64,000 bases of DNA from Candidatus Omnitrophota bacterium (GTDB taxonomy: Bacteria > Omnitrophota > Gorgyraeia > Aquiviventales > Aquiviventaceae): the NCBI GenBank assembly GCA_016198905.1, contig JACQHR010000032.1, positions 74,390 to 138,389 on the forward strand, written 5' to 3'. Below, one piece after another: positions 1,270-27,341 of the stretch (its first letter is position 1; each line of letters begins with the position of its first letter). The notes beneath the pieces were generated by a model. The model saw only the letters and a list, made by a program, of their open reading frames with translations. It searched no databases and was not told the DNA's origin. Position numbers and translations under genes: made by a program.

Positions 1270-1272
1270 ATT

Positions 1273-1781
1273 CGTTTCACGTTTCAGGTTTCACGTTTCA
1301 CGTGACGGACGATGACAACCGTACAGCGATTTGAACAATTGGAAGCTTGGCAGAGAGCACGGGAACTTGCCCAAGAGGTTTATGCGATCACAGGGAAGGG
1401 TTCCTTTGCAAAGGATTTTATCCTCAGAGACCAAATTCGGCGAGCTGCGGTTTCGGTTGTCGCGAATATCGCAGAGGGATTTGAGCGCAGCGGCCGAGGT
1501 GAGTTCATCCAATTTCTTGCCGTGGCCAAGGGTTCAGTCGGAGAGTTGAGGTCGCATGTATACATTGCTCACGATCAGGGGTATCTCAGCAAGGCCGAGT
1601 TTGAGCGGTTAAGCGATCTCGCCATCCGGACCGCACAGTTGGTAGGCGGGCTGATGAATTATCTGAGAGGGTCTAGCATTAAAGGCACCAAGTTCAAGAA
1701 GGTTGTCGGACTGAGTGTTGTTTCCACGCGAGGCGACTTTGCCCAACGTGAAACCTGAAACGTGAAACGCGAAACGAAACG
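1273..1781 (+). repeat. E1: heptamer-armed palindromic cassette carrying a four-helix-bundle gene
   Basis: Left arm 1274-1304 is GTTTCAC GTTTCAG GTTTCAC GTTTCAC GTG. Right arm 1747-1781 is CGTGAAAC CTGAAAC GTGAAAC GCGAAAC GAAACG. 1273-1295 is a perfect 23-nt reverse complement of 1747-1769. The cassette starts 4 nt after the upstream TAG and ends at the ATG of the next GT2. Confidence 0.9.
1312..1758 (+). CDS. Four-helix-bundle protein (23S rRNA intervening-sequence protein / S23p family, TIGR02436-like)
   Basis: FEQLEAWQRARELAQEVY...RDQIRRAAVSVVANIAEGFERSG..EFIQFLAVAKGSVGELRSH matches the family hallmark (W-Q-A...ANIAEG...A.GS..E). The stop TGA lies inside the right arm of E1. Confidence 0.85.
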   Translation: MTTVQRFEQLEAWQRARELAQEVYAITGKGSFAKDFILRDQIRRAAVSVVANIAEGFERSGRGEFIQFLAVAKGSVGELRSHVYIAHDQGYLSKAEFERLSDLAIRTAQLVGGLMNYLRGSSIKGTKFKKVVGLSVVSTRGDFAQRET

Positions 1782-2732
1782 ATGAGCATGCCTGCACGTC
1801 CACTAGTAAGCGTGGTCATTCCAACGTTCAACCGCGCGGCGATGCTGCGCGAGGCGCTGGAGAGCGTCTTCCACCAAACGGTCAAGAGCTTCGAGGTGAT
1901 CGTGGTGGACGACGGCTCCACGGATGACACGTCCCGCGTCGTGAAAAGCTTCGCGCACGGCATCGTCTATCTGCGGCAAGAAAACCAAGGGGTCGCGGCG
2001 GCGCGCAATAGCGGCATCAAGGCGGCGAAGGGCCGGTACATCGCCTTTCTGGACTCGGATGACCTGTGGCTGCCGCATAAGCTGGAGCGGCAGATCGACT
2101 ACCTGCGAGCGCATCCGGACGTCGGCCTGCTGTACGCGCGCATGTGGTCCTACCGCACGGAGACACCCCAGGAGCGCCGCCTGGATCCGCACGTGGTGGC
2201 GCGGACATTTGCGGATCTGGTCAACGGCCCCAATGCCATCACGACCTCGACGGTTATGATGAGACGCGAATGTGTGCAGGTCGTGGGCCTGTTCAACCCG
2301 GCGCTGCGCGGGACCGAGGATCACGAGTTTTGGCTGCGGGTCGCGAGGCGGTTTTCCATCGCGTTTCTTGATGAACCGCTGGCCGAATACCGGCGCCACG
2401 GCAAGAGCATCAATGGCGATCCCATCGGCCTGTACGACGCCTACCGGAGGCTCTATGAGATCATCTGGCGAGAGTACCGCCGGGAGTTGCGCGATCCTCG
2501 CGCCGCCGAGCGGCAACTCGCCAAGTTCGAGTACCTCTGCGGCACCACGGCGCTGAAGCGCGGCGACCGTCGACGGGCGCTGAAGCTCATCCGCACGGCC
2601 TTAGCCCGTGATGCGGCGCTGGGGCAGCAGTTCGTGAAGAAAGACACGCCCTGGCACGTGAAAGTCTGGCTGCCGATCAAGCCCTACGCGGCGTTGACGG
2701 TGAGCGCCCTGCAGACGCTTGGGAGGAACTAA
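1782..2732 (+). CDS. Glycosyltransferase family 2
   Basis: VSVVIPTFNR, VVDDGSTDDT, AFLDSDD. The ATG directly abuts E1's right arm. Confidence 0.9.
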   Translation: MSMPARPLVSVVIPTFNRAAMLREALESVFHQTVKSFEVIVVDDGSTDDTSRVVKSFAHGIVYLRQENQGVAAARNSGIKAAKGRYIAFLDSDDLWLPHKLERQIDYLRAHPDVGLLYARMWSYRTETPQERRLDPHVVARTFADLVNGPNAITTSTVMMRRECVQVVGLFNPALRGTEDHEFWLRVARRFSIAFLDEPLAEYRRHGKSINGDPIGLYDAYRRLYEIIWREYRRELRDPRAAERQLAKFEYLCGTTALKRGDRRRALKLIRTALARDAALGQQFVKKDTPWHVKVWLPIKPYAALTVSALQTLGRN

Positions 2733-2740
2733 AGAAGTGA

Positions 2741-3175
2741 CTACGAGAGGACAAACGCGGACAGCAAATACACAAACGGCAACGCGGCCATCCGTCGCTG
2801 CAGGCGCTCATCAGCCGTGACGAAGGGGATGCCGAGTTCCTGAGCGAGGGCTGCGAAGCTGGCATCGTAGAAGGACGCATCGTACGCGTCGGCGAGCTCG
2901 GAGGCGAGCATAGCTTGAGGCAAGGTCAACGGATGAATCGCAACGTTCAGGCTGAAGAACTCAGTAAGAATATCCAACGCGGTACGCCGAGGCATCGGCG
3001 GCCGCAGGTAACGCAGAGCATTTCCCAGTTCGTAGAGACTCAGTGTGGGGACGTGCAGCGTCCGCTTACCGCCGGCGTGTTCGAGCAGGAGTCGTTCGGC
3101 GCGCTGAAACTCAGGCTCCCGTGGCTTGACGTAGCACTTGAGGATGACCGAGGTGTCGACTACGACGTCTTCCAT
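2741..3175 (-). CDS. vapC: PIN-domain toxin VapC
   Basis: MEDVVVDTSVILK (N-terminal acidic D), later YDASF and a C-terminal TAD motif. Overlaps the upstream antitoxin gene by 16 nt. Confidence 0.85.
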   Translation of the reverse strand: MEDVVVDTSVILKCYVKPREPEFQRAERLLLEHAGGKRTLHVPTLSLYELGNALRYLRPPMPRRTALDILTEFFSLNVAIHPLTLPQAMLASELADAYDASFYDASFAALAQELGIPFVTADERLQRRMAALPFVYLLSAFVLS

Positions 3176-3441
3176 GCAGAGCCATACCGGGTGTCTCGCA
3201 GCCGGCGGATGAGCGAAGCGCTCGTCTGGCCTTTAGGCAACCGGAGGTTCGCCCCCAGGATTCGCTTCGCAGCTTGCTGCATGGCCTTTCGAGCGCTCGG
3301 CAGGGGTGGGGTCACCCGAATCGCGACATATGTGCGAATCGCCTCACGCACCAACTCGCTGCGGCTGCGATGTTCCGCGCGGGCCAAGGCATCAACATCG
3401 TGCAAGAAGTTCCGAGGCAACGACACCATCACTTTGCTCAT
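3160..3441 (-). CDS. vapB: Ribbon-helix-helix (CopG/VapB-type) antitoxin
   Basis: MSKVMVSLPRNFLHDVDALARAEHRSRSELVREAIRTYV is an RHH fold pattern. AGGAGG lies about 7 nt upstream of this internal ATG (the track ORF begins earlier, at 3534). Confidence 0.75.
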   Translation of the reverse strand: MSKVMVSLPRNFLHDVDALARAEHRSRSELVREAIRTYVAIRVTPPLPSARKAMQQAAKRILGANLRLPKGQTSASLIRRLRDTRYGSAWKTS

Positions 3442-3523
3442 GAGCAGGTCCTCCTGTGACTGGATCAAGCGTACCATGGCAGGCAATCCAAAGGCAATAC
3501 AAAAGACATACACGACGGCTCGG

Positions 3524-3586
3524 CTGCCGATCAAACCGTATGCGGCGTTGACGGTGAGCGCGCTACAGGCGATAGGGAAGAACTGA
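3524..3586 (+). repeat. Orphan 63-nt copy of the GT2 3' end (duplicate of 2670-2732)
   Basis: Encodes LPIKPYAALTVSALQAIGKN* versus LPIKPYAALTVSALQTLGRN* at 2670-2732. Differences are 5 synonymous codon changes, 3 conservative replacements and a stop-to-stop change. Confidence 0.85.
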
Positions 3587-3608
3587 AATGAGAATAGTGG
3601 AGAGCCAG

Positions 3609-4145: not shown

Positions 4146-4156
4146 GTCTCACCTCC

Positions 4157-5665: not shown

Positions 5666-5672
5666 AGCCAAG

Positions 5673-6986: not shown

Positions 6987-6987
6987 C

Positions 6988-8933: not shown

Positions 8934-11464
8934 GGATTGTGATTGTGGCACCAGAGGTGTTTCCGGTTCCACCGATCCGAGGCGGGGCGGTGGAGACCGT
9001 CATCGAGGAAATCTCCGCGCAGTTCCGTGACCACAAGGTAACCATTCTCGGCATTGCCGACGCGTCACTGCCGGTGCAAGAGACGAAGGAGCATCGGACA
9101 TATCGCCGTTGGAAGCGCACGGTCATTGATCGACTCTTGCTCTCGACGTGGAAGCTGCCGTTCAAACAGAGCAACTCGCCGTGGTACTACTGGCCCTACC
9201 AGCATTGGATCGCCAGGCAGGTGCAACGGCTGCGTCCCGACGTCGTGTGGGTGCACAGCCGCATCCAATTTGCGCCGGCGATTCGCCGCGCCGCCCCTCA
9301 CGCGCGGATGATCGTCAGCGTCCATCAACTGAGCACGCTGCGCGATGAGCGCGTCTGGCAGCAAGCGCGCGTCGCGTGTTGTGATGTGATCGCCGGTGTC
9401 AGCCAATTCATGATCGAGGCCATCGCTGCGCGGTATCCATGGACGCAACCCAAGACGCACGTGCTCTCAAACGGCGTTGACGTGACAGCCTATCAGCCGT
9501 GGTGGGCGCAGTCGGCCAGGCGCGAGCGGATGCGCCGCGAGCAGGGCTGGGGTGACGCGCCGGTGATCTTGTATGCCGGGCGGCTCGTCGAGCAAAAGGG
9601 CGTGCATGTGCTCGCCGATGCTTTCAAACAACTGGTAAGGGGTGAGGGGCGGGAGACAGGGGGCGCGGGATCCAACACGAAACCAATGCTGGTCATTGCC
9701 GGCGGCCACACGTACTCCGATGGGACAGAAACCGACTATATCAGGCAGTTGAAGCGCACGCTTGAGCCGCTGGGATCGCAGGTCGTCTGGCTGGGGTATC
9801 AACCGTCGAGCGCGCTGGTGAGCCTGTACGCGGCCAGCGACGTCGTCGTCGTCCCATCAATCAATCCGGAAGCGTTTTCCATGGTCACGGTTGAAGCGAT
9901 GGCCTCGGGTCTGCCGGTCGTTGCCTTCGCGCACGGCGGCCCAGCGGAGATCATTCGCCACGGCATCGATGGGTTCTTGGTGCCGGTCTCCCGCGGCGCG
10001 GAGGGTCTGGCCGAGGCGCTGCAAGCGTGCGTCAGCAACACCACCCTGCGGGAAGCCATCGGCCGCGAGGCCAGACGGACGGTAGAGGAGCGCTTTACGT
10101 GGCAGCGTGTGGCAGAGAGCTTCCTCAAATTGACTCAGGGACAAGGGACAGGGGACAGGGGGCGAGGGAATGCCCTTCCTACGCCCCGCGCCCCGCGCCC
10201 CGCGCCCCAGACACGCGCCGTCCCTATTCTTATTGCTGAGTCAGGATCAGGCTACGGAGGCAGCGCGAAATACCTCAGCGAGCTGGTGTCGCTGCTGGAT
10301 CGGCGACGCTTCCACGCGCAGGTGGTGGCGGCTGAAGAGGGGCCGTTCATTCGCAAGGTCAAAGAGCAGGGAGTGCCAGTAGCACTGAGGCCAAGTTGGA
10401 GATTCGCTTGGGGGCAGGGGGCGGGAGACGAGGGGCGGGGGAAGGGCCAGCACACAGCACTCAGCACGAACGTGAAACATGAAACGCGAAACGTGAAACG
10501 AACGTCGCATGTCCGGTTCGCGCTGGTTGCTGCTACACAGCTTTTGATCATGGTTCCAGCAATTGCCCTCTGGTTGAAGTGGCGGAGGATCCGGCTGGTG
10601 CATCTGAATAACGAGATCCTCTCGCACGTGCCGCTGGCGCTCGGAGCGAAACTCGCCGGCTGCCGCGTGGTGTGCCACCTGCACGGCTGGCGTCCGTTCA
10701 CGAGGCTGGAGCGCGCTGTGGCCGGTGTCGTTGATGAGTTCGTCTGCATTTCGGAGGCTGGCGCGCGGTACTTCGAATCGCAACTGCCGCATCGCCGGGT
10801 GGCCGCGATTCCCAACGGTATTCTGCTCAATGGTCAGTTGGACGGCCTTGACGTGAAACGAGCGCAGGTCCGTCGGCAGTTGGGGATCCAGCCCCATGAC
10901 GCGGTCATCGCCATCATCGGGCGCTTGGTGCCGTGGAAAGGCCAGGCAGTGTTCTTGAAGGCGTTGGCGGATGTCAGCCAGCGACACCCGGACGTGGTCG
11001 GCCTCATCGTGGGGCACGATGCCTCGCCAGGGCAGAGCTATCTGACACAGTTACAGTCGACTGCGCGTGAGCACGGCCTCGCTGAGCGTGGGCGCGTGCA
11101 CTTTGTCCCGTGGCTCGAGGACGTGTGGGGCATTTATGCCGCGGCGGACATCATCGTGCACGCTTCGACGCAGCCGGAGCCGTTCGGACTCGTGCTCATT
11201 GAAGCGATGGCGGCGGGCAAGCTCGTGATTGCCACGCGATCCGGTGGAGTCGTCGATATCGTCACGGATGGCCGGACAGGACTGCTGGTTGAGCCGGGCG
11301 ATCCGGATGGGCTGGCGCGCGCCATCACGCAGGTGGTGACTGATCCTTCGCGCGCCGCTGCGCTGGCTGAGGCCGGCCGGCAGCGCGCGCGAGACGTGTT
11401 CACCATGGAGCGCAACGCGCAGGCAGTCGCGCAGGTCTATCAGCGGCTGATGGTGTGCCGATGA
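8930..11464 (+). CDS. Double GT4 glycosyltransferase (two complete GT-B modules joined through element E3)
   Basis: Module 1: MRIVIVAPEVFPVPPIRGGAVE...VVPSINPEAFSMVTVEAMASGLPVVAF. Module 2: ILIAESGSGYGGSAKY...ASTQPEPFGLVLIEAMAAGKLVIATRSGG. ATGA overlap at 8930. Contains E2, E3 and E4 in frame. Confidence 0.85.
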   Translation: MRIVIVAPEVFPVPPIRGGAVETVIEEISAQFRDHKVTILGIADASLPVQETKEHRTYRRWKRTVIDRLLLSTWKLPFKQSNSPWYYWPYQHWIARQVQRLRPDVVWVHSRIQFAPAIRRAAPHARMIVSVHQLSTLRDERVWQQARVACCDVIAGVSQFMIEAIAARYPWTQPKTHVLSNGVDVTAYQPWWAQSARRERMRREQGWGDAPVILYAGRLVEQKGVHVLADAFKQLVRGEGRETGGAGSNTKPMLVIAGGHTYSDGTETDYIRQLKRTLEPLGSQVVWLGYQPSSALVSLYAASDVVVVPSINPEAFSMVTVEAMASGLPVVAFAHGGPAEIIRHGIDGFLVPVSRGAEGLAEALQACVSNTTLREAIGREARRTVEERFTWQRVAESFLKLTQGQGTGDRGRGNALPTPRAPRPAPQTRAVPILIAESGSGYGGSAKYLSELVSLLDRRRFHAQVVAAEEGPFIRKVKEQGVPVALRPSWRFAWGQGAGDEGRGKGQHTALSTNVKHETRNVKRTSHVRFALVAATQLLIMVPAIALWLKWRRIRLVHLNNEILSHVPLALGAKLAGCRVVCHLHGWRPFTRLERAVAGVVDEFVCISEAGARYFESQLPHRRVAAIPNGILLNGQLDGLDVKRAQVRRQLGIQPHDAVIAIIGRLVPWKGQAVFLKALADVSQRHPDVVGLIVGHDASPGQSYLTQLQSTAREHGLAERGRVHFVPWLEDVWGIYAAADIIVHASTQPEPFGLVLIEAMAAGKLVIATRSGGVVDIVTDGRTGLLVEPGDPDGLARAITQVVTDPSRAAALAEAGRQRARDVFTMERNAQAVAQVYQRLMVCR
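9637..9669 (+). repeat. E2: solo G-rich arm inside GT4 module 1
   Basis: AAGGGGTGAGGGGCGGGAGACAGGGGGCGCGGGA matches the left-arm consensus and is translated in frame as RGEGRETGGAG. No C-rich partner follows. Confidence 0.8.
10136..10208 (+). repeat. E3: G-arm/C-arm palindromic element fusing two GT4 cistrons
   Basis: Left CAGGGACAAGGGACAGGGGACAGGGGGCGAGGG, loop AATGCCCTTCCTA, right CGCCCCG x3 + CGCCCC. Translated as GQGTGDRGRGNALPTPRAPRPAP with no stop. Confidence 0.85.
10410..10504 (+). repeat. E4: chimeric three-block heptamer element inside GT4 module 2
   Basis: G-arm GGGGGCAGGGGGCGGGAGACGAGGGGCGGGGGAAGGG, then CAGCACA CAGCACT CAGCACG, then AACGTGA AACATGA AACGCGA AACGTGA AACGAAC (the E1-type GTGAAAC arm). 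In frame as GQGAGDEGRGKGQHTALSTNVKHETRNVKRT. Confidence 0.85.
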
Positions 11465-12957
11465 GCGTCGTCAACCAAACCGCAGCCCGCGCAGGCGCAC
11501 GCGCCATACCCCCGCTGCACACCGTGGTCGACCGCCGCATCTGGACGTTTGTCGCGCTCATCGGATTCCTCGGCTGGCTCGTCATGAAGGAAATCACGCT
11601 GCCCTCCGGTCTCATGGCGGCTTGTGCGGGGCTGGGATTGCTCGGGCTGTTCATGGTCAGCGTCCAGCGGCCGGAGCTGTCGCTGTACGTGCTCGTGGCA
11701 TACCTGCCGTTCAGCCGGCTCCTCGTCGGAGATTTCGGCACCGAAGCGTACGCCTTCAACCTCACGAACATCCTGACGCTGTGGGTCCTTAGCGCCTATG
11801 TGCTGCGTTGCATGTCGCAAGGCCGGCAGCCCTTCCAATCCGCCCCGATGAGTCGCCTCGTCCTGGCGTTCTGCGCGCTGAGCGGATTCTCGCTGCTGCA
11901 GGGAGGCTTTGCGTACGGCTCCTGGTACTTCTGGCATTACCTCACTCCGCTGAAGCAGTGGCTGACGCCGATCTTCTTTTACTTTCTGGCGCTCTGGGTG
12001 GTGCGGGATCGGAAAGTTCTCAAGACGGTCGTGGTGCTCATGATGGTCGCCGTCACGGTGGTAGCGCTCATGGCGATCCGGGACTATCTGAACAACTCGG
12101 GCAGCAGCCTCGAGAAATCCCGGGTCGGCGGGATCGCCGAGCAGCCCAACACGCTGGGGGCGTTCTTCGTGTACTACATGTTCTTGTTCGCCGGCTTCTT
12201 CCTGACCTATCGCAAGAAGTTCAAGGTGTGGGGGCTGCTCGTTCCCTTTCTGCTGTGTTTCCGCGGCATCATGGTGACATTTTCCCGCGGGGCCTATTTC
12301 GGATTCGCCGCCGGCGGCCTCGGAGCGTGTTGGCACCGCAATAAGGCGCTGTTTGTGGTCGCCGCCGCGCTGTTATGGTTTGCCGTCATGAATCCCTGGA
12401 TGCTGCCGAAGGGGATTCGGTATCGGATGGGGCAAACCGTCGTCAGCCACGGCAGCGACAACGCACCGGGCGACGCGCCGATCGAGGATACCTTGGAAGC
12501 CAGCGCCGGAAACCGCGTGCGCATTTGGCGGGCGACCATCGAGATGATCAAGGACCATCCGTGGTGGGGGGTGGGCTACGGGGCGTTTCCCGCCTACATC
12601 GGGGTGTACACCGGCGGGCACTTCGAGGCGGTCGATGCCCATAACACGTATTTGCTCCTTGCCGCCGAGTTGGGGATCCCAATACTGGTCGTGTTCTGCG
12701 TGGTGATCCTCGTGGCGTGGTATCACACCAGGCGACTCTACCTGGGGACCCACGACTTCGCTATGAAGGCCATCACCCTAGGTTTCCTCGCCGGGCTGGA
12801 AGGGCTCATTGTGGTGAACATGTTCGGCTCGCGGATGGATGACCAGGCGGTCAGCAGCTACTTTTGGATCTTGTGCGGCCTCATCATGCGCGGCGTGTTG
12901 ATCGAGCGGGAAGAGATGTTGGGGGCATGGGGCGCGAGACGTGGGGCGAGGGCATAG
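11461..12957 (+). CDS. O-antigen ligase / Wzy-like polytopic membrane protein (paralog 1)
   Basis: About 10 or more hydrophobic segments. Central GIMVTFSRGAYFGFA and periplasmic-loop ...HNTYLLLAAELGI (Wzy_C-like). ATGA overlap with the upstream gene. The C-terminal tail LGAWGARRGARA is encoded by the E5 left arm. Confidence 0.8.
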   Translation: MSVVNQTAARAGARAIPPLHTVVDRRIWTFVALIGFLGWLVMKEITLPSGLMAACAGLGLLGLFMVSVQRPELSLYVLVAYLPFSRLLVGDFGTEAYAFNLTNILTLWVLSAYVLRCMSQGRQPFQSAPMSRLVLAFCALSGFSLLQGGFAYGSWYFWHYLTPLKQWLTPIFFYFLALWVVRDRKVLKTVVVLMMVAVTVVALMAIRDYLNNSGSSLEKSRVGGIAEQPNTLGAFFVYYMFLFAGFFLTYRKKFKVWGLLVPFLLCFRGIMVTFSRGAYFGFAAGGLGACWHRNKALFVVAAALLWFAVMNPWMLPKGIRYRMGQTVVSHGSDNAPGDAPIEDTLEASAGNRVRIWRATIEMIKDHPWWGVGYGAFPAYIGVYTGGHFEAVDAHNTYLLLAAELGIPILVVFCVVILVAWYHTRRLYLGTHDFAMKAITLGFLAGLEGLIVVNMFGSRMDDQAVSSYFWILCGLIMRGVLIEREEMLGAWGARRGARA

Positions 12958-15204: not shown

Positions 15205-16466
15205 TCAGACATCAGACCTCAGACATCAGACCACAGTCGGACTCAAGACCCAAGACCCAAGACCCAACAGGTGCATTTTCAGCCCCGAGTCTTGAGTCCC
15301 GAGTCTTGAGTCCCGAGTCTCGGGTCCCAGTGAAGGTCATATTCATCATTTGGTCGCTTGGATTAGGCGGCGCAGAACAGGTTGTGATCCGGTTAGCAGC
15401 CGGGCTTGATCGTCGCCGATTCGCGCCGATCATTTGCTGCATGAACGAGCCCGGGCCGTTTGCCACGCAAGCGATCAGCCGCGGCATCGAGGTGATTGCG
15501 CTGCATAAGCGCGGCGCGATCGATCTGGGCATGCTGATCAGGCTCACGCGCGTGATGCGGCAGCGTCGGCCCGGCATCGTGCACACGCATCTGTGGGGCG
15601 CCAGCTTCTGGGGGCGTCTCGCGGCGCGTCTGGCGCGCGTCCCGGTAGTCATCGTCCATGAGCACGGCATGCAGCCCTATCGCGGGGCCTTCCATTTTTT
15701 CTGCGATCGATGGTTAGCGCGGGTCACGTCGCGCATCCTGTTTGCCTCGCAGCACGTCCTGCAGATCTACCGGGCAAAGACGGCCGTCGCGGAATCCAAG
15801 TGCATGGTGATTCCGAATGGTGTCGCGGTGTTACGGCTGCCGGATCGAATCGCGGCTAGGCGCGCGCGCGGATGGTCGCCGGACGATCAAGTGATCCTCA
15901 GCGTCGGGCGGCTCTCGCCGGAAAAAGGCTATGAGGATTTGCTGAAGGCCTTCGCGCTCATCGCTTCCCGCGCGCCGCACGCGCGGCTGGTGCTCGTGGG
16001 AGATGGCGCGCAACGCGCGGCGCTTCAGACGCTGCAGGCGCAGTCAGGGCTCAATGGCCGCGTGACGTTTGCGGGCCGGCAAGAGGATGTCACGGGATGG
16101 CTGGCCGCGGCGGATCTCTACGTGCAGCCCTCGCATCGAGAAGGGCTGCCGCTGGCGGTGCTGGAGGCGATGGCCGCCGGCGTGCCGGTGGTGGCCACCG
16201 ACGTCGGCGATCTGCGCTACGTCATCACCGAGGGACGCACCGGCTACCTCGTGCCGGCCCGGCAGCCGGACACGCTGGCTGCGCGATTGGTCGACGTCCT
16301 GGAACATCCCGAGCAACAGCCGCGCATCGCCGAGGCCGCGCGAGCGCTCGTGCGCACGCGCTTCTCCGACGAACAGATGATCCGCGCCATTGAGCGCGTG
16401 TATGAGGACGAGCTGTCGTGTTGGGGCAAGGGGCAGGAGACGGGGGGCGGGGGAGGGAACCGCTGA
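15201..16466 (+). CDS. Glycosyltransferase family 4
   Basis: VKVIFIIWSLGLGGAEQVVIRLAAGL... and QPSHREGLPLAVLEAMAAGVPVVATDVGD. ATGA overlap at 15201. The first ~43 codons are E9 heptamer repeats, so the true start could be later (e.g. GTG 15331). Confidence 0.8.
   Translation: MIRHQTSDIRPQSDSRPKTQDPTGAFSAPSLESRVLSPESRVPVKVIFIIWSLGLGGAEQVVIRLAAGLDRRRFAPIICCMNEPGPFATQAISRGIEVIALHKRGAIDLGMLIRLTRVMRQRRPGIVHTHLWGASFWGRLAARLARVPVVIVHEHGMQPYRGAFHFFCDRWLARVTSRILFASQHVLQIYRAKTAVAESKCMVIPNGVAVLRLPDRIAARRARGWSPDDQVILSVGRLSPEKGYEDLLKAFALIASRAPHARLVLVGDGAQRAALQTLQAQSGLNGRVTFAGRQEDVTGWLAAADLYVQPSHREGLPLAVLEAMAAGVPVVATDVGDLRYVITEGRTGYLVPARQPDTLAARLVDVLEHPEQQPRIAEAARALVRTRFSDEQMIRAIERVYEDELSCWGKGQETGGGGGNR
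15205..15328 (+). repeat. E9: variant heptamer element (different unit sequences)
   Basis: TCAGACA TCAGACC TCAGACA TCAGACC; then ACTCAAG ACCCAAG ACCCAAG ACCC; loop GGTGCATTTTCAG; then GAGTCTT GAGTCCC GAGTCTT GAGTCCC GAGTCTC GGGTCCC. GGACTCAAGAC is complementary to GTCTTGAGTCC. Confidence 0.8.
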
Positions 16467-16495
16467 ATGCGGAACGCGGAGTGCGGAATCGAGGA
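16422..16495 (+). repeat. E10: G-rich arm followed by a TGCGGAA heptamer block (no C-arm)
   Basis: TGGGGCAAGGGGCAGGAGACGGGGGGCGGGGGAGGG ... TGCGGAA CGCGGAG TGCGGAA TCGAGGA. The GT4 stop TGA 16464-66 lies between the two blocks. Confidence 0.8.
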
Positions 16496-16540
16496 AGCAA
16501 TTGAGACCTAACGCGAAGCGAACGTCACGTTGGGGCGGCG

Positions 16541-18025
16541 ATGAGGAGTGACGCGGTCTTGCCGGCAGCGATGGTGAGGCGCCTGCTGCCCGAGGTGGAT
16601 GAGCGGGCGTGGATGTTCGTGCTCGCGATCGGCGCCTTCGCCGTGTTGGGGCTCAAAGAGATGCCGTTATCGGCACCCCTGGTCTTGGGTCTCTTCGCTG
16701 CCGGTGTGGTCGGGTTGATTGCGGCCGGCTGGCTGGGACCCGAAGCACCGCTGTACGCGCTCATCGCGTACTTGCCCTTCAGCGGGCTGCTGGCCGGTGG
16801 CGCGTCCATCCCGTTTCTCAACCTGACGAATTTGCTTATCCTACTCATCGTGGTCAGCCACATTTGGCGGCAGCGTCGGAATGAGCTGCAGGTCTTGACG
16901 TCTGCGCCGATGAATGCGGTCATCGCGCTTTTCGCCGCGCTGGCGGTTCTGTCGTGGATGCGCGCCGGATGGATGTATGGCGGCTGGTACGCGTCGACGC
17001 ATGCCGTGGCTCTCTTGCGTTGGCTGCGCCCGATGGCGTTCTACTTCGTGGCGCTGTGGGCCGTGCGGGATGCGCGCGCACTAAAGACCGTGCTTGCGCT
17101 CATCGCGGTGGCGGTGACGGTCGTCGCGCTGATGGCGCTGTGGGAGTATCTCGATCGCGCCGGCAGCACCATCGAGCGCTCGCGCGTGCAGGGAATCGCC
17201 GGCGAAGCCAACCGCATGGGGGCGTTCTTCGTGACGTACATGTTCCTGTTCCTTGGCTATTTCTTCGTGACACCGCTGCGTCGCTACGGGTGGCTGATGC
17301 TCGTGCCGTTTCTCTTGTGCGTGCGCGGCATCATGGTGACCTTCTCGCGCGGGGCGCATGTGGCGTTCGCTGCGGGGGTGCTCGTCGCTTGTTGGATGCG
17401 CAGCAAGTGGCTCTTCGTGGTTGCGGCCGCCGCCGCGGCATTCATCATCACGCATCCGGCCCTGCTGCCGGGAGGATTTCGCACCCGCATCGAGCAGACC
17501 ATTCGTCCTGGTCAGCGACTCGACCTGGACGCCGGCACCTCGCAGGAGCTCTCGCGGCAATTGGAGCCCAGCGTCGGGCGACGGGTTGAAGCATGGAACG
17601 GCGGCTTGGCGATGGTGCGCGCGCATCCCTGGGTTGGCGTCGGGTTCGGAGGATTCCGGCGGTTCATTCCCCACTACACGCAGGGCCGAGTGAGCTCCAT
17701 GGCGGCGCACAACACGTACCTGTGGCTGGCGTCGGAGATGGGCATCCCCACGCTGCTGGTGTTTCTGCTGTTTCTCGACCTGCTGGCGTACCACACGGTG
17801 TGGCTGTATCGGCACAGCCAGGATGTCTGGCTGCGGGCTCTTGGCCTTGGCGTGTTGGCCGGCGCCGCGGCGCTGTCTGTGGCCAACGGTTTCAGCGAGT
17901 GCCTCGATTCCTCCGAGGAGGTCGTGGGTTATTTCTGGATCCTCTGCGCGCTCGTCATGAGAGGCGTCCTGCTTGAAAAACAACAGGCTGGGGCAAGGGG
18001 CGTGAGACAGGGGGCGGGGGAATAG
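16541..18025 (+). CDS. O-antigen ligase / Wzy-like polytopic membrane protein (paralog 2)
   Basis: Collinear with 11461..12957 (e.g. GIMVTFSRGAHVAFAAG, AHNTYLWLASEMGIP). The tail GARGVRQGAGE is encoded by the E11 left arm. Confidence 0.8.
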   Translation: MRSDAVLPAAMVRRLLPEVDERAWMFVLAIGAFAVLGLKEMPLSAPLVLGLFAAGVVGLIAAGWLGPEAPLYALIAYLPFSGLLAGGASIPFLNLTNLLILLIVVSHIWRQRRNELQVLTSAPMNAVIALFAALAVLSWMRAGWMYGGWYASTHAVALLRWLRPMAFYFVALWAVRDARALKTVLALIAVAVTVVALMALWEYLDRAGSTIERSRVQGIAGEANRMGAFFVTYMFLFLGYFFVTPLRRYGWLMLVPFLLCVRGIMVTFSRGAHVAFAAGVLVACWMRSKWLFVVAAAAAAFIITHPALLPGGFRTRIEQTIRPGQRLDLDAGTSQELSRQLEPSVGRRVEAWNGGLAMVRAHPWVGVGFGGFRRFIPHYTQGRVSSMAAHNTYLWLASEMGIPTLLVFLLFLDLLAYHTVWLYRHSQDVWLRALGLGVLAGAAALSVANGFSECLDSSEEVVGYFWILCALVMRGVLLEKQQAGARGVRQGAGE

Positions 18026-18437
18026 CAATGCCTATGACGTCTGCAGCGATCACAACCTTCAAAGACCTTCGCGTCTGGCAGGAAGGCATCCAGTTGGTCA
18101 AGGAGATCTATGCCCTCTGCGTCAAATTGCCGAAGGAAGAACTCTACGGCTTAGCGAGTCAGATGAAGCGCGCGGCGGTGTCGGTTCCATCCAACGTAGC
18201 AGAAGGCCATGCTCGAAAACACCGCGCCGAGTACAGACAGTACGTGTATATTGCGATCGGCTCGCTTGCGGAACTCGAGACGCACGTGCTCATTGCTAAG
18301 GAGTTGAACTTGTCTAATGGTGATGAGCTGACCCCGGTCCTTACACGCATTGACCGTTTGCGAGGGATGTTGCTGACGCTCGGGAGACGACTCGGATGAC
18401 GCCGTCCCCTCGCCCCTCGCCCCTCGCCCCTCGCCCC
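17989..18437 (+). repeat. E11: G-arm/C-arm palindromic cassette carrying a second four-helix-bundle gene
   Basis: Left TGGGGCAAGGGGCGTGAGACAGGGGGCGGGGG (17989-18020). Right (CCCCTCG)x4 + CCCCA (18406-18437). About 25 of 32 positions are complementary by hand alignment. Confidence 0.9.
18028..18399 (+). CDS. Four-helix-bundle protein (23S rRNA intervening-sequence protein family), second, divergent copy
   Basis: FKDLRVWQEGIQLVKEIY...QMKRAAVSVPSNVAEGHARKH..EYRQYVYIAIGSLAELETH. Starts 2 nt after the ligase TAG and has an ATGA overlap with the next GT4. Confidence 0.85.
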   Translation: MPMTSAAITTFKDLRVWQEGIQLVKEIYALCVKLPKEELYGLASQMKRAAVSVPSNVAEGHARKHRAEYRQYVYIAIGSLAELETHVLIAKELNLSNGDELTPVLTRIDRLRGMLLTLGRRLG

Positions 18438-23700: not shown

Positions 23701-26383
23701 CGACTATGGCGATACGCGGACGTGGTATCGCAAGGACGCTTACGACAAATCCTACGACGACTGGGGCTGGCACCCGGAGGGCCGCTGGGGCTGGCACAAC
23801 TGCGAGGCGGTGGGCAGCCACGGGGGCGCGCTGATGAGCTTCCTGCGGACGCAGGAGCTCAAGTACTTCCGCTTCGGCGAGGCGAAGGCGCGCCACGTGA
23901 TGGACGTCGACACCGTCCACTACGATACGATTGCCAACGACTCGCGGCTTTCGCGCAAGCTCTCGGATGAGTTCTCGAAGGTCGGCTCCATGCACCGCCA
24001 CAACGCCTATCACTGGGGCGGGCGCAACGAGGAGGCCACGCACACGAACGTCGCCGGGCTGCTCCTCTACTACTATCTCACCGGCTATGAGCGCGCGCTG
24101 GATGTCGCGAAGGAAGCCGGCGGCTTCATGCTGTTTGATCCGGTGACCTACACCAAGCATCCGGACATCGCCCCCTCGCGCGCGATCGGCAACGTGCTCT
24201 GGAACGATACACTCCTCTTTGAAGCCACCGGCGAGCGGCGCTACCGCACCGCGGCCGAGCGGTGGGTGCGCGTGCTGCTCAAAGGCCAGCAGAAAGACGG
24301 CACGTGGCTGGAGACGTACAATCCGCGCAACGGCACCTGGTACGGCGATGTCAAGACGAACTACCTCTGCTACCACGTGCTGCCGGCGCTCATCGCCTAC
24401 CACCGCCTGACCGGCAACCCGGCCGTCGCCCAGGCGATTGTGATGGGCACCAATGCGATGATCGCCAAGGAGCCGTACCTGCAGTTCTTCGACGCGCTGG
24501 CCTACAGCTTTCTCATCACGGGCAAGGGCGAGTACGTTGATGAAGGGCTGCGGCGAGCGATGGCGCTGTATCGGTCGCAGCGGCGCGATGAAGATCCGGC
24601 GTTCAACGGCACCGTTTTTGAGAAGGCAACCTATGACCGTGTGGGGCCGATCCTGTATTCCGTGCCGTTTGCCATCGGCGCGATGGACGCGACGGATTTT
24701 CCAACGCTGGAGCAGTCCTTCCAACCCCCATCACGACCAACGAGCACGCCTCCTCGCTCGACACAGACCAGTCAGCAGGCTTCCCCCACAGCCACCGCGC
24801 AGACCGGCGCATCCTATGAAGTGCTTGTCGTCCCGTCGATGGAAAAAGTGTTTCCTCAGGATCAGCGGCCGGCGAGCGCGCACAGCAATCCGGCGGTGCT
24901 GGCACTCGCCCGCAACGAATATGAGTCCGTCCAGCTCGTGCTACGAGCCAGCGCCCCGCTGGAACAGGTGACGGTTGAGACGCACGATCTGACGCGCACC
25001 GACGGCACGGGTGTCATTCCTCGTGACGCGCTGACGTGGTTTCCGGTCGGGTTTGTGAAGACGAGGCAGCCGGACTATGACGTCTCGCGCGTGGGCTGGT
25101 GGCCTGATCCGTTGCTCGATCCAACACCGTTTGCCGTCCAGGCAGGATGGTGGCAGCCGATGTGGCTGACGGTGTACGCAGCCCCCGGCACGCCTGCAGG
25201 AGAGTACACGGGCACCGTGACGATCCGGCCAGGCAATGCGCCGCCCAAAGACGTCGAGGTGAAGGTGCGGGTGTGGGATTTCGACTTGCCGGCGACCCCG
25301 ACGCTCAAAAGCGCGTTTGACGTCTATCCGGCGAGAATCGACAGCGCCTACCGCCAATTCTTTCCGCAGTGGTGGCCGCGCGTGCAGGGACGGACCGCGC
25401 AGCTGACGCAGTGGATCGATGACGACCTCCTTCGCCATCGTCTGGCACCGATGCTCAACGCGGATCTCCAGCGGCCCGAGACGATGAGCGAGCTGCGGCG
25501 CCTGCGCGCGAAGGGGCTGAGCGCATTCGCCATCGGTCGCTACAGCGGCAGCTTCGACAACAACTGGCCCACGGACGGCACGCAGCTCGAGCAGCTCCAA
25601 CCCGTGTACCGGGCGTATGGCTACCAGCTGCGCGACGCCAAGCTGATCGATCGGCACTACATCTATACGTACGATGAACCGGCGCCGGGGCTGCCGCATG
25701 TCGCCGCAGTCGCGCACATGGTGCACGACGCGGATCCGCAACTGAAGAACCTGGTAACACTCGGCGCGCCGATGGATGTGACAGCGCTCGCCGGGTGGTT
25801 GAAGGACATCGATATCGTCTGCCTGCGCAACGTGATCGCGCAGTCGGAATCGATCCGCGCCCTGCAGCAGATGGGCAAAGAAGTCTGGCTCTACGTCTCC
25901 GGGCCGAAGCCGCCGTATCCGACGCTGGTGATCGATTATCCGTCGCTGGCCTATCGCATCCTGCCGTGGATGTGCTGGAAGTACGGCATCCGCGGACTGC
26001 TCTATTGGAGCGTCAATTACTGGACGACGAACCCGTACGAGCAGCCGATGAATACGCCGTGGCAACAAAACGGCAACGGCTCGTTGTACTATCCAGGACC
26101 CGAGGGCCCGCGCCCGTCGCTGCGGCTGGAAGTGCTGCGCGATGGGATGGAGGACTACGAGTATCTGTCCCGGTTGCGCGAGTTGATCCAATCAGCGAAG
26201 GCCGGCGGGCGCATCGATGCCGCGACGTTGGCCCGGGCGGAACAGTTGGTGAACGTGAATGACGGGTTCGTGGAGTCGCTGCGCGTCTACTCGAATGATC
26301 CCGCGGTGCTGTTGGCGCAGCGTCAGGCGATTGCAGAGATGATCGAGAAGCTCCAAAACATACTGAAGGGGCAAGGGGCATGA
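20714..26383 (+). CDS. Giant membrane-anchored multidomain protein: metallophosphoesterase + polysaccharide lyase/hydrolase-like region + DUF4091-like domain
   Basis: Two N-terminal hydrophobic helices. Phosphoesterase motifs: QITDLHIT, ITGDLIND, VPGNTDN, LLAHSPD, GHTHGGQ. A long beta/alpha-toroid-like middle region (tentatively PcRGLX/YetA-like). P/S/T/Q linker (PPSRPTSTPPRSTQTSQQASPTATAQ). C-terminal WWPDPL...LLYWSVNYW (DUF4091/GH123-like). ATGA overlap at the start. Stop lies inside the E12 left arm. Confidence 0.7.
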   Translation: MNVIKLLKLAFVAAHAGVIGLVILRAWSLSLAESRAVAGRFLRVALTRLLLVVMVELSPYVYARFVEPNMVVVTRLRVAQDQLAHALGGRRVVQITDLHITTIGARERRLIQRVNRQRPDWIVITGDLINDAAGWRAALEVIGRLKATQGIWVVPGNTDNAILSPDSFAQGLAGVNAKVLRNSRIRMAETDAWLVGVDDPVERRDSLDEALKGMDRSAPPPMILLAHSPDILDAAVAARIPLVLVGHTHGGQLGIPWLRRLSSYADRGPYVGGGRYHVEQTTMYVNRGIGWKEIPHRFLAPPEVLVIEFRPQGKRAAPTAESPPVRAEVWLSDFERDGEEAVLWNVFNAFATHSREHASHGQACAKVTLKAGFSSSYALEDDFLTRDPARRDWTRDEALAFDVYNAQSVPEPLIVRIRDDGKGLYEETITLPSRVPHTVTLSLADLSRSLDLSRVSGLALLRKDSTHDVVLYLDAVRLLPRRAGAPASGVSTGAATEEPSALEDAAVTPHMLGRWHFEHDLVSRWRAADPATGRSVVRVPLTVVGPQMPLSVGQPIAGGIPFAMGQLAANAAIRVHDMNGAVWPAQTRPLAVWEDGSVKWLLVTAQVPMTARSRQLWLEYGEPVAADPAPQPRVRVDDTPQAVTVTTGPLRFTVSRRHFTLFDSTFVDRNRDGVFAEAERLASAGDLVLKRGDTEFRSSRDTVSYMLQVEEAGPVRATLKASGWFRDAAGRGFCQFTVRLQAFAGLPQVRVYHTFIYTGYPANLYNPNYEGIKLPANETIQDISLELPVTLGATTQLITADEQGLVTAPLTNPTSISQLAHDAYQIRQQGAASPLRAGAHHEGWLLMQDSNAGVMVGVRDAWQQYPKAFEVDAASRRLIVRLWPSSAGDLNLETGADAYGPDAVARGSAFGLAKTHELWVGFLGAVIDGSTARALAGLWQEPWLLSAHPAWVQDTDALGTVGPAEMDRFPEQEAMLEDVFGWAKRQPQRFDWYGMLDYGDTRTWYRKDAYDKSYDDWGWHPEGRWGWHNCEAVGSHGGALMSFLRTQELKYFRFGEAKARHVMDVDTVHYDTIANDSRLSRKLSDEFSKVGSMHRHNAYHWGGRNEEATHTNVAGLLLYYYLTGYERALDVAKEAGGFMLFDPVTYTKHPDIAPSRAIGNVLWNDTLLFEATGERRYRTAAERWVRVLLKGQQKDGTWLETYNPRNGTWYGDVKTNYLCYHVLPALIAYHRLTGNPAVAQAIVMGTNAMIAKEPYLQFFDALAYSFLITGKGEYVDEGLRRAMALYRSQRRDEDPAFNGTVFEKATYDRVGPILYSVPFAIGAMDATDFPTLEQSFQPPSRPTSTPPRSTQTSQQASPTATAQTGASYEVLVVPSMEKVFPQDQRPASAHSNPAVLALARNEYESVQLVLRASAPLEQVTVETHDLTRTDGTGVIPRDALTWFPVGFVKTRQPDYDVSRVGWWPDPLLDPTPFAVQAGWWQPMWLTVYAAPGTPAGEYTGTVTIRPGNAPPKDVEVKVRVWDFDLPATPTLKSAFDVYPARIDSAYRQFFPQWWPRVQGRTAQLTQWIDDDLLRHRLAPMLNADLQRPETMSELRRLRAKGLSAFAIGRYSGSFDNNWPTDGTQLEQLQPVYRAYGYQLRDAKLIDRHYIYTYDEPAPGLPHVAAVAHMVHDADPQLKNLVTLGAPMDVTALAGWLKDIDIVCLRNVIAQSESIRALQQMGKEVWLYVSGPKPPYPTLVIDYPSLAYRILPWMCWKYGIRGLLYWSVNYWTTNPYEQPMNTPWQQNGNGSLYYPGPEGPRPSLRLEVLRDGMEDYEYLSRLRELIQSAKAGGRIDAATLARAEQLVNVNDGFVESLRVYSNDPAVLLAQRQAIAEMIEKLQNILKGQGA

Positions 26384-26456
26384 GACGCGGGGCAGGAAAA
26401 ACCAAATTTGGTATTGAGGATTTTCCCACGCCCCGTGCCCCCGTCTCCCGCCCCTT
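26366..26456 (+). repeat. E12: palindromic element at the giant-protein / deacetylase junction
   Basis: Left AAGGGGCAAGGGGCATGAGACGCGGGGCAGG. The loop has a GGAAAA...TTTTCC clamp and an internal CCAAATTTGG palindrome. Right CACGCCCCGTGCCCCCGTCTCCCGCCCCTT. Confidence 0.85.
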
Positions 26457-26476
26457 AGTCTAGAGGAGTCTAATCG

Positions 26477-27265
26477 ATGCGCATTGTAGCGCTAACCTTT
26501 CACGATATTGTTCCTAACGGCAACGACGCCGCGATCAAGAGCGATGAGTTCTACCGCATCACCACGAGTGAATTCGAGAAGCTCCTCTCACAGTTGCGCA
26601 AGCTCGGCTATCAAACGGTCAGCTCCCGCACGTTTCGCGCCTGGCAGCAAGGCTCAGGCACGCTGCCCGAGCGCACCGTCGTCCTCACGTTCGATGACGG
26701 CCACGCGAATCATTTCGAGCTCGTCGCGCCGTTGCTGGTGCGATATCGATTCACCGGCACGTTCTTCGTCACGAGCGGATTCATCGGCACACCCGGCTAT
26801 ATGAATTGGGAGCAGCTGCGCAAGCTCGTGTTCCTCGGCATGGAGATCGGCTCGCATGGCGCCACCCATCGGCCGCTGACGCAACTAGCTCGCGCGGCAG
26901 TGGTCGACGAGCTTGCGTCATCGAAGACGCTCTTGGAGCAGCGGCTGGGCATTCCGGTTCAGGCGATGGCAGCACCCGGCGGGTTCTGGAATCACACCAT
27001 AGCCGATGCGTCCAAAGAGGCGGGCTACGAGGCGGTGTGGGTCTCGACGATCGGCACGAACGGCAAGGAGACGAGCCCGCTGGCGTTGCGCCGCGTCGTC
27101 GTGCGGCAGCCGTTTTCCGTCGAGCGGATCGTGGCGATGGTCGAGGGCTGGCAACCGGCCTTCTGGTGGGCGGCGAATCAACAATTGCTCATTCGGCTGC
27201 TCAAGCGCGTCCTCGGCGTCTATTGGTACGAACAACTCAAGCGCCGCCTCGTTCCCAATGCCTAG
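26477..27265 (+). CDS. Polysaccharide deacetylase (CE4/NodB-type), paralog 2, without element insertion
   Basis: LTFDDGHANH, GSHGATH and APGGFWN motifs. Confidence 0.85.
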   Translation: MRIVALTFHDIVPNGNDAAIKSDEFYRITTSEFEKLLSQLRKLGYQTVSSRTFRAWQQGSGTLPERTVVLTFDDGHANHFELVAPLLVRYRFTGTFFVTSGFIGTPGYMNWEQLRKLVFLGMEIGSHGATHRPLTQLARAAVVDELASSKTLLEQRLGIPVQAMAAPGGFWNHTIADASKEAGYEAVWVSTIGTNGKETSPLALRRVVVRQPFSVERIVAMVEGWQPAFWWAANQQLLIRLLKRVLGVYWYEQLKRRLVPNA

Positions 27266-27341
27266 AGGGAGCGTGGGGCGTGGGGCGTGGGGCGTGGGAA
27301 AACCGCTTTTCCCTCGCCCCCCATCTCCTGTCCCTTGCCCC
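27266..27341 (+). repeat. E13: palindromic element at the deacetylase / GT2 junction
   Basis: Left AGGGA + (GCGTGGG)x4. Inner clamp GGGAAAA-CCGC-TTTTCCC (27296-27313). Right CTCGCCCCCCATCTCCTGTCCCTTGCCCC, which is close to the reverse complement of the E10-type G-arm. Confidence 0.85.

Follow-up and report, generated by a model that had tools for sequence, protein, structure and literature searches.

We have analysed a 64,000-nt stretch of a Candidatus Omnitrophota genome (contig JACQHR010000032.1, positions 74,390 to 138,389; hereafter the window), which holds 13 features built from arrays of 7-nt units along an exopolysaccharide (EPS) operon. With a probability of roughly 60%, we regard these as copies and remnants of insertion cassettes of the intervening sequence (IVS) type, otherwise known from rRNA genes, and of derivatives without an open reading frame (ORF), all of them probably selfish and tolerated by the host. 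The unit would be an inverted pair of short period-7 tandem arrays pairing into an imperfect stem, which encloses a PF05635 gene in two elements (E1 and E10) and a short loop only in eight ORF-less hairpins; three single arms would complete the set.

A search with the 25-nt motif of the G-rich arm, GGGGCARGGGGCGGGAGACRGGGGG, allowing up to three mismatches, gave 11 matches in the window against 0.00 expected (100 shuffles). Ten of these are canonical G-arms, nine on the plus strand (9639, 10411, 12922, 13571, 14266, 14575, 16423, 17990 and 26368) and one on the minus strand (27317); the eleventh (13634, minus strand) comes from the C-rich partner arm of the 13571 copy, read in reverse. Four different heptamers in a set, non-repetitive order make up the G-arm: GGGGCAG GGGGCGG GAGACAG GGGGCGN. 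A sequence-only reading of this DNA had likewise described ten copies with a nearly invariant left arm, and inner clamps of the type GGAAAA..TTTTCC, which are present in window copies. It had also taken the 13 features for copies of one element. The heptamer-armed family is indeed real and non-random, but the 13 features are several heptamer families sharing one architecture, together with remnants that include the three lone arms, since E1 is made of GTTTCAC/GTGAAAC units and the feature at 15204-15328 of ATCAGAC, GACCCAA and CCCGAGT units.

Tandem Repeats Finder (TRF) located period-7 arrays of at least three units only at 1273-27298, and arrays of G4/C4 runs agree; beyond 27298 it gives just two 2.1-copy period-7 rows, both with the minimum score. 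The confinement of all 13 elements to the first 27.3 of 64 kb has a p of ~1.6e-5. Eight copies are situated at gene junctions and five inside genes, and a sixth, near-internal copy (14266) lies three codons before a stop. The arm with GAGAC is on the plus strand in nine of the ten canonical window copies, the inverted copy being that at 27275-27341. The earlier statement that the G-arm is always 5' on the coding strand is trivial as worded, because this is automatic for any palindrome. No transposase, as already remarked in the sequence-only reading, and no integrase or reverse transcriptase was found among the genes of the window. An Rfam scan of the 1-30 kb region (E <=1) returned only sub-threshold matches to miRNA-precursor models, which reflect the generic hairpin, and no known RNA family or rRNA family.

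Cargo genes and the architecture of PF05635 loci

E1 (1270..1781, plus strand) lies between two GT2 glycosyltransferase genes and consists of a left array (GTTTCAC)4 at 1273-1303, an ORF of 148 aa (1312-1758) and a right array (GTGAAAC)n at 1745-1776, both arrays being recognized by TRF as period 7. E10 (17990..18437, plus strand) comprises a G-arm (17990-18024), an ORF of 123 aa (18028-18399) and a C-arm (CCCCTCG)4.6 at 18406-18437. Between the upstream stop and the cargo ATG there are 2 nt, and the ATG of the next gene overlaps the stop of the cargo (ATGA). These are the only two of the 13 window elements that enclose such a gene. The optional protein cargo had been noticed before, but its identity, which is key to classifying the elements, went unrecognised: both ORFs belong to PF05635 (23S_rRNA_IVP / S23p four-helix bundle), with E values of 1.9e-33 (E1) and 1.5e-34 (E10). 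The nearest solved structure to the E10 protein is Xanthomonas XCC0516 (PDB 2GSC, E 1.5e-21). Co-matches to PF22296 ("bAvd") appear in profile searches with the cargo family. Avd, a PF05635 homologue, is the accessory subunit of the reverse transcriptase in diversity-generating retroelements. E1 and E10 show all testable IVS features except the rRNA location.

The same layout was found in a sample of 13 independent PF05635 loci from about seven phyla. This comprised the two window elements; a locus between dnaX and recR (L144), with G-type arms and a cargo 68% identical to that of E10; four homologues chosen on long contigs (L172-L175, covering Omnitrophota, a low-GC organism, Rubrivirga and Atribacteria); plasmids of cultured Nostoc, Stanieria, Riemerella and Gemmatirosa; and two viral-contig lineages. 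Inverted short tandem arrays flank the PF05635 gene in 13 of 13, the units being 7 nt long in 12 and 8 nt in one, Gemmatirosa kalamazoonensis plasmid 1 (L180; AGGAGGGC / CCCTCCTG). The array unit differs by genome: TAGTATA/TATACTA, TATCGCG/CGCGATA, GTGANGG/CCNTCAC, GGTTTAA/TTAAACC, GCAGAAG/CTTCTGC, TAGGGTG/CACCCTA and ATAGGAA/TTCCTAT were seen, besides the Omnitrophota G-type arms with GAGAC. Nearly all of these loci are between co-oriented operon genes (pgk|tpiA, gnd|zwf, efp|nusB, yggS|proC, dnaX|recR). At L172 the cargo has an ATGA overlap with the called gene on either side, and the arms are within the neighbours' reading frames, so that the host proteins are predicted to bear the arms as tail and leader; E10 is constructed in the same way. 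Published accounts also place genes for IVS proteins (IVPs) in cas operons, among other sites there between cmr3 and cmr2 (PMC3936711), and within rRNA insertions of bacteria of the candidate phyla radiation (bioRxiv 10.1101/2024.02.27.582315).

Most close homologues of the cargo sit on contigs of less than 2 kb, which suggests that assemblies break at PF05635 cassettes, as expected of multi-copy or repeat-flanked DNA.

Vacant sites in syntenic operons

The host operon (316-28483) encodes GT2, GT4, Wzy-like, polysaccharide deacetylase and GH123-like proteins. Its GT4 protein at 13001-14265 shows 100% identity with one from a Candidatus Omnitrophica MAG. Two related metagenome-assembled genomes (MAGs), represented by L170 and L168/L169, have a syntenic operon (double-GT4, Wzy, GT4, deacetylase, GT4, Wzy etc.) in which the genes abut or overlap by 4 nt and in which TRF finds no period-7 array. 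Protein alignments show a clean gap or a replaced tail at every window site: the C-terminal tails of Wzy1, GT4b and Wzy2 are replaced in the window by translated G-arm, and N-terminal extensions of window proteins correspond to translated C-arm. Because the syntenic operons are compact and free of such arrays, the window elements are secondary insertions into an originally compact operon. The comparison with orthologous EPS loci that had been advised thus yielded empty sites, and the segments are absent from the orthologues instead of being conserved in them as protein.

For the GT4 gene at 12941..14344 the alignment covered 23 homologues (identity 59-70% for 22, 44-48% for two). In many of them the position of the 13569-13660 copy is empty; others carry different inserts there with a 7-residue periodicity, e.g. 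QTRKPAN repeated, which betrays other heptamer arrays. In a third syntenic locus, L176, from another Omnitrophota genome (GT4 64% identical), G-arm hairpins occupy the Wzy1/GT4 junction and the same internal GT4 loop. Its GT4/deacetylase junction (11293-11374), where the window has the 14266 hairpin, holds an unrelated, non-heptamer, 18-bp perfect palindrome (TGATCCCACCACCTGCTGG...CCAGCAGGTGGTGGGATCATG) that contains both a stop and a start codon.

We also considered whether lone G-arms and distant C-arms might bracket host genes as "cargo", and rejected this since the bracketed segments are orthologous to uninterrupted L170 genes.

Preservation of reading frame

The G/C arms are free of stop codons in every frame on both strands, since the G-arm consensus is devoid of T and the C-arm consensus of A. 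As 7 is coprime to 3, the frame moreover makes no difference to the 7-residue repeat that an array (N7)n encodes: PRAPRPA results from (CCCCGCG)n in any of the three, as observed at 10184, 14315 and 14634. The G-arm is read in three frames, as GARGGRQGA at 13571, GQGAGDRG at 14266 and GKGQETGG at 16423. At least 12 independent copies are internal to a coding sequence (CDS), namely six in the window, one each in LysS-like, RluD-like, PheT, Lnt-like and radical-SAM genes elsewhere, and that in the GT4 gene of L176. All of them keep the host frame ((1/3)^12 ~2e-6), which agrees with the in-frame tolerance proposed from the sequence, and the alignments place the internal inserts at variable loops, linkers and termini. 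With all internal copies open and in frame, there is no need to invoke translational bypassing of the gene 60/byp type, and this idea was rejected.

Copies in other genomes

The exact 19-mer GGGGCARGGGGCGGGAGAC was searched across one genome per species (185,579 species). It matched 46 stretches, about half of which are chance matches in GC-rich coding DNA; some 20 have the full architecture, GGGGCAGGGGGCGGGAGAC-NN-GGGGCGNGGGAA, a loop, and then (CCCCNCG)2-5. The latter come from other Omnitrophota MAGs, two Planctomycetales-labelled MAGs and a few short contigs binned elsewhere, and occupy unrelated, non-orthologous sites, so further copies do exist outside the window. A metagenome scan with GGGGCGGGAGACNNGGGGC contained about 12 true elements among 120 matches; since most are chance coding matches, it supports no abundance estimate. 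The sequence GGGGCGGGAGACCAGGGGC recurs at five metagenome loci (L077, L085, L149, L156, L159) as coding sequence followed by ..LMFGY.., which we take to be the GAGDQG region of MetK; exact searches with the G-arm core therefore catch that gene by chance.

Since automatic ORF calls are misleading at GC-rich loci, the strand of the host gene was set there by codon-position GC together with Pfam. Junction copies are found upstream of priA, hisH, leuA and pyrG. Other copies lie internally and in frame in genes confirmed by Pfam, those for a class II LysS-like aminoacyl-tRNA synthetase, an RluD-type pseudouridine synthase, the B3_4 domain of PheT and an Lnt-like CN hydrolase, and, in reverse orientation, in a radical-SAM gene. 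Restriction to the glycosyltransferase operon, as described from the window, holds within it, but these housekeeping operons and genes make it a property of the window and not of the element. Three orthologous junctions (priA, hisH, leuA) are occupied in two or three genomes each; the G-arm is there nearly invariant (19/19 identical across three genomes at priA), the coding flanks are ~70% identical and the loops unrelated.

Canonical G-arms were also seen in MAGs labelled as other phyla. They are followed by other heptamers in a Chloroflexi MAG (L014, contig end; GGGGTCA/GGGGACA) and a Desulfohalobiaceae MAG (L036; AGAGATC), and one lies in frame in a GT4 gene of an Acidobacteriota MAG (L003). 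Either mis-binning or horizontal spread would account for them.

RNA folding

Folding z-scores were computed against dinucleotide shuffles. Eight window copies fold as long, interrupted, imperfect hairpins, with z of -6.7 (15239), -6.2 (13571), -5.6 (14567), -5.3 (27275), -3.1 (26368), -2.6 (14266), -2.4 (12922) and -1.7 (10151). G-rich plus C-rich sequence pairs well even when shuffled, which makes these values conservative. The arms of the eight copies fold better than shuffles, as the sequence-only reading would have it. The three lone G-arms at 9639 (z +0.66), 10411 (z +1.1) and 16423 (z +0.2) lack a complementary arm and fold like shuffles; two of them have neighbours from other heptamer families (CAGCACA and AACGTGA after 10411, GAATGCG after 16423). 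The C-arm unit varies in type and in number (2 to 5). Nearly all stem pairs are invariant G-C and the heptamer arms are slippery, with several registers, so that covariation is uninformative.

Sense and antisense RNA showed no significant asymmetry in folding, the mean difference of 1.9 kcal/mol favouring antisense (p 0.15). In the sense RNA the GAGAC unit stands opposite GCCCC with A.C mismatches, where the antisense RNA would have G.U pairs. The G-arm holds at least four runs of G3-5 and is, formally, capable of forming a G-quadruplex as judged from its sequence. No U-tract occurs 3' of the stems in the window, and intrinsic terminators were rejected on this ground.

Individual elements of the window

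Besides E1 and E10, the following features were identified, all of them on the plus strand except the last. The double-GT4 gene carries three. In the first GT4 half a variable loop contains, in frame, a lone canonical G-arm, GGGGTGAGGGGCGGGAGACAGGGGGCGCGGGA (9639..9672), that is read as RGEGRETGGAG; the corresponding loop is shorter in the L170 and L168 orthologues. The short hairpin at 10137..10208, (AGGGACA)n/GGGGGCGAGGGAA ... (CCCCGCG)4, is in frame in the inter-domain linker and encodes a 23-aa insert, GQGTGDRGRGNALPTPRAPRPAPQ; this site is empty in L170 and L168. A chimeric remnant in frame in the second GT4 half (10410..10500) consists of a canonical G-arm, (CAGCACA)3 and (AACGTGA)4.6; its arms are not complementary, and the insert of ~26-36 aa is a gap in L170 and L168.

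The hairpin at 12921..12997 marks the Wzy1/GT4 junction (z -2.4). The upstream ORF reads through the G-arm (..GAWGARRGARA) up to a TAG within the loop, and this loop, CATAGTCATATG (12952-12962), provides both that TAG and an in-frame ATG for the next gene, the C-arm being read as MPTIPPPPAPRP. The C-terminal tail of Wzy1 differs here from those of L170 and L168, and L176 also has a hairpin at this junction. Two further hairpins lie in the GT4 gene 12941..14344: one (13569..13660) in frame in a loop before VSYHGVD, read as GARGGRQGAGTTKTIVEGFSTPPVPRPPSH, and one near the 3' end (14266..14332), in frame three codons before the stop and read as GQGAGDRGQVQTDFPAPRAPRP, after which the GT4 stop and the next start overlap as TAATG (14342-14346). 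In the polysaccharide deacetylase gene a hairpin (14566..14658) is placed in frame directly before LTFDDG; the deacetylase Pfam domain begins at residue 103, and the insert of ~23-25 aa is a gap in L170 and L169.

Other heptamer families occupy the deacetylase/GT4b junction (15204..15328), where (ATCAGAC)4 is followed by a hairpin of (GACCCAA)4 ... (CCCGAGT/CTTGAGT)3; the N-terminal extension of the downstream protein is missing in L170. At the GT4b/Wzy2 junction (16423..16496) a lone canonical G-arm and then GAATGCG-type heptamers provide the tail CWGKGQETGGGGGNR, which differs from that in L170, and the stop codon. The hairpin at the GH123-like/deacetylase-2 junction (26366..26456) has a GAGAC/GTCTC unit in both arms, and its point variant GGGGCATGAGAC at 26377-26385 (consensus GGGGCGGGAGAC) creates the TGA of the upstream GH123-like gene. 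Finally, the hairpin at the deacetylase-2/GT2 junction (27275..27341) is the inverted copy, with the canonical arm on the minus strand and an inner clamp GGGAAAACCGCTTTTCCC.

Other features of the window

Between GT2 genes a PIN-domain (VapC-like) gene (2741..3175, minus strand) and a small upstream ORF (3160..3534, minus strand) form a toxin-antitoxin-like cassette. On either side of the cassette lies a copy of a 67-nt direct repeat (85% identity), a duplication of the GT2 3' end (2668-2733, 3522-3588). At the equivalent spot L169 has a HicAB pair, and the otherwise matching L168 is without one. A single ORF of 1913 aa (20642-26383), with no heptamer array inside, includes the counterpart of the 1012-aa Metallophos/GH123 gene of L170 and is possibly a gene fusion or a mis-joined ORF. 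In the remainder of the window are genes for a PEP-CTERM/exosortase system, for sigma-54 regulators and for ABC transporters; a low-GC segment (44001-46904; 0.51 vs ~0.60) with two ORFs lacking a Pfam match (45425..45892 and 46005..46904) lies just upstream of the TPR/exosortase EpsH genes.

Origin of the elements and alternative explanations

We propose that the elements spread by copying and not by local slippage. As the window does not encode such an activity, the PF05635 protein would be the sole element-encoded candidate factor. The ORF-less hairpins may descend from cargo-bearing cassettes and spread non-autonomously, since the same G-arm, GGGAA..TTCCC clamp and (CCCCTCG)n arm occur in both. 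The chimeric and lone arms (10410-10500, 16423-16496 and 9639) would be products of decay or recombination. Once inserted, the stem could loop the insertion out of the transcript as it does in rRNA, the layout being, by analogy, that which RNase III excises from 23S rRNA. The host ribosome would translate an arm as an extension of either protein terminus or as a linker loop within the protein, so that in-frame copies are probably translated as flexible Gly/Arg-Pro loops at permissive sites; internal copies would then give junction peptides such as LVNSHGARGGRQGAG and LKEQGQGAGDRGR. With stops and starts located in the loop or at ATGA/TAATG overlaps, the translational coupling of the operon can presumably persist; examples are the TAG..ATG in the loop of 12921-12997, the TAATG after 14332 and the TGA that arises from the G-arm point change at 26368.

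Several observations weigh against this explanation. Neither a mobilising enzyme in the window nor a target-site duplication, direct repeats or a common target in the flanks of ~35 copies was found, so that mobility is deduced from the distribution of the copies only. The arm bearing GAGAC is 5' on the strand of the host gene in 32 of 36 copies (9 of 10 in the window, 23 of 26 elsewhere; p 2e-6). Stop avoidance fails to explain this bias because both orientations are open, and RNA folding fails likewise because the sense RNA is no more stable than the antisense; the weaker hairpin may be the one favoured in mRNA, but the effect is small, and the bias hints at selection or a mechanism at the level of RNA or replication. 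Conservation is much stronger in the G-arm than in its partner, and three G-arms occur singly; a sequence-specific role of the G-arm would account for this no less well than a hairpin element. Different genomes also have inserts at the same junctions and in the same GT4 loop, which could reflect host benefit rather than hotspots. Finally, the translation of the in-frame copies is predicted from their nucleotides, and the putative descent of the ORF-less hairpins from the arms that they share with the cargo cassettes.

These points lend some weight to two rival explanations. In the first, the elements would be intercistronic RNA elements of benefit to the host, that is RNase III sites, barriers to 3'-exonucleases or modulators of translational coupling that set operon expression, the G-arm being a conserved protein- or ribosome-binding RNA motif. 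The orientation with transcription (32:4) would follow, as would the conservation of the G-arm beyond that of synonymous sites at the priA, hisH and leuA junctions and the filling of the same junctions in different genomes, once by the unrelated palindrome of L176; the homologous stem of the rRNA IVS is, moreover, cut by RNase III (PMC4990558). We nevertheless consider such a role unlikely. At least 12 copies lie within CDSs, some of them of aminoacyl-tRNA synthetases, in which a cleavage site or roadblock should do harm, and the syntenic operons work without such elements. The sense RNA also folds no better than the antisense, and the stems have neither a U-tract nor an Rfam match.

Hairpins without target-site duplication and with a strand bias are typical of single-stranded DNA transposition by Y1 enzymes, and dispersed copies with no enzyme in cis in the window recall a non-autonomous transposon of the REPIN (repetitive extragenic palindromic [REP] doublet forming hairpins) or MITE (miniature inverted-repeat transposable element) type. 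It would be mobilised in trans, e.g. by an RAYT (REP-associated tyrosine transposase) or IS200-IS605 transposase acting on single-stranded DNA hairpins, with the PF05635 gene as a passenger. This is rather improbable: the arms begin with GGGGC and not with the GTAG or CGTC tag of the two REP superfamilies (PMC3733652); they are not copies of each other, the C-arm being variable in unit type and number; and an association of PF05635 with such arrays in 13 of 13 loci across phyla is unexpected for a passenger.

Still less probable is an origin without any mobility, in which polymerase slippage created the heptamer arrays in place, template switching the palindromes, and convergence the likeness. 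Heptamer simple sequence repeats (SSRs) are over-represented in many bacteria, with strain-variable unit numbers (PMC4692102, PMC4990558), and the 2 to 5 C-arm units and many heptamer families within 27 kb of the window agree with such a process, but it would hardly produce a fixed order of four heptamers that is identical at unrelated loci and in different genomes, where the chance expectation is 0. That the elements are a protein-level feature, i.e. selected Gly/Arg- and Pro-rich linkers or tails of glycosyltransferases, is barely credible even though loops and linkers are where the inserts lie and the peptides encoded are flexible and of low complexity, for it is contradicted by frame usage (the same nucleotides give three different peptides, as listed above), the element also occurs between genes and on the opposite strand, and the orthologues lack the segments.

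Integron attC cassettes were rejected (no R''/R' core sites, GTTRRRY, at the arm ends, no integrase, and copies also inside genes), as was a CRISPR array (irregular spacing of 300 to 8000 nt, with genes as the intervening DNA).

Relation to known repeats

Insertion cassettes of the IVS type thus remain our preferred explanation for the window elements, which resemble the rRNA IVS in architecture and the Rickettsia palindromic elements (RPEs) in their tolerance within CDSs. The rRNA IVSs have long been suspected to be mobile or selfish. Those with an S23p gene (Coxiella, Leptospira, Brucella, Xanthomonas-type) share with our elements a PF05635 ORF inside an inverted-repeat stem, tandem heptamers of variable number in the 5' arm, and the absence of a mobility enzyme (PMC4990558). 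In the 23S rRNA of Coxiella a 28-bp inverted-repeat stem surrounds the S23p ORF and contains two to three tandem GACAGAT heptamers, the number being strain-variable, and RNase III cuts within the stem, at the first heptamer repeat (PMC4990558). The window copies, by contrast, are in or between the protein-coding genes of an mRNA operon rather than in helix 25/45 of 23S rRNA, most have no ORF, some are in frame inside protein-coding genes, and excision by RNase III is for them suggested by analogy only. RPEs are palindromes that are likewise found in frame in unrelated, even essential genes, with protein function apparently kept and no transposase; they are, however, ~150 bp long with one conserved peptide per family, whereas the window elements measure 55-125 nt, are built of heptamers and are read in three frames (PMC10969869). 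Judged by the descriptions of RPEs, there is no sequence relation, and the Omnitrophota lineage and the link to a protein-coding "parent" cassette also set our elements apart.

Tandem G-tract 7-nt units, mostly intergenic and near the upstream ORF, are known as (GGGAATC)n in Xanthomonas, (GGGGAYT)n in Nostoc and the short tandemly repeated repetitive (STRR) sequences of cyanobacteria. Xanthomonas genomes have 70-75 convergent (GGGAATC)n array pairs each, which are transcribed and capable of forming stem-loops, and by TRF and folding the window elements fall under the definition of such heptameric inverted SSR pairs (PMC4692102). The Xanthomonas and Nostoc repeats are described as simple repeats and G-quadruplex formers, with no fixed multi-heptamer arm, CDS colonisation or S23p link reported; both genera, notably, do carry S23p genes. 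REP/REPIN-RAYT systems likewise have abundant GC-rich imperfect palindromes at gene ends and no target duplication; our elements differ in lacking their tags, in having arms that are not mutual copies and in commonly occupying CDSs, and no RAYT gene was seen in the 8-20 kb loci examined. MITEs differ by their target-site duplication; a parent insertion sequence with a transposase and the same ends is absent within the window. The mycobacterial interspersed repetitive units (MIRUs) are, like our elements, small intercistronic inserts co-oriented with transcription, whose stop and start codons overlap the flanking genes. They are direct tandem units without heptamers or cargo, and not hairpins.

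The combination of features, thought perhaps new when first noticed, is therefore partly anticipated by the heptamer pairs of Xanthomonas (PMC4692102) and the IVS of Coxiella (PMC4990558). We found no paper on a general association of PF05635 with heptamers or on Omnitrophota repeats, although our coverage of the literature is incomplete, so that this is absence of evidence only. Four things appear to be undescribed in the searchable literature: the G-arm family of Omnitrophota, its spread in frame into essential genes, the syntenic operons without elements, and the 13/13 association of PF05635 with inverted short arrays.

Biological significance

To our knowledge, the 23S rRNA IVS with its S23p ORF has been unexplained for more than 30 years as regards origin, mobility and the function of the protein. 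The finding that the IVS architecture, inverted heptamer arrays with a PF05635 gene, also lives in mRNA operons explains the presence of genes for a "four helix bundle protein" inside unrelated operons (cas, glycolysis, EPS), where such neighbours have been misread as functional partners. For annotation it means that in Omnitrophota proteins a Gly/Arg/Pro-rich insertion or tail, or a gene fusion, can be derived from these elements. Co-evolution of protein and arm, presence/absence polymorphism of each copy and RNase III processing of mRNA copies are testable from here.

More speculatively, PF05635 genes with inverted heptamer arrays may constitute one pan-bacterial class of "transcript-riding" parasites that insert at operon junctions and rRNA helices. 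The four-helix protein would be a trans-acting factor recognising the 7-nt-periodic arms for copying or maintenance, and the ORF-less G-arm hairpins of Omnitrophota non-autonomous offspring able to colonise coding sequences. If so, the heptamer period would be the mechanistic signature of a protein-nucleic acid complex, co-opted as a frame-neutral, stop-free buffer.

The properties of the arms offer a simple rationale for the tolerance of 7-nt arrays in genes. The ORF-less copies, as putative descendants of the cassettes, would behave like the Rickettsia palindromic elements in another phylum, and would link the intervening sequences of rRNA to insertions within protein-coding genes.

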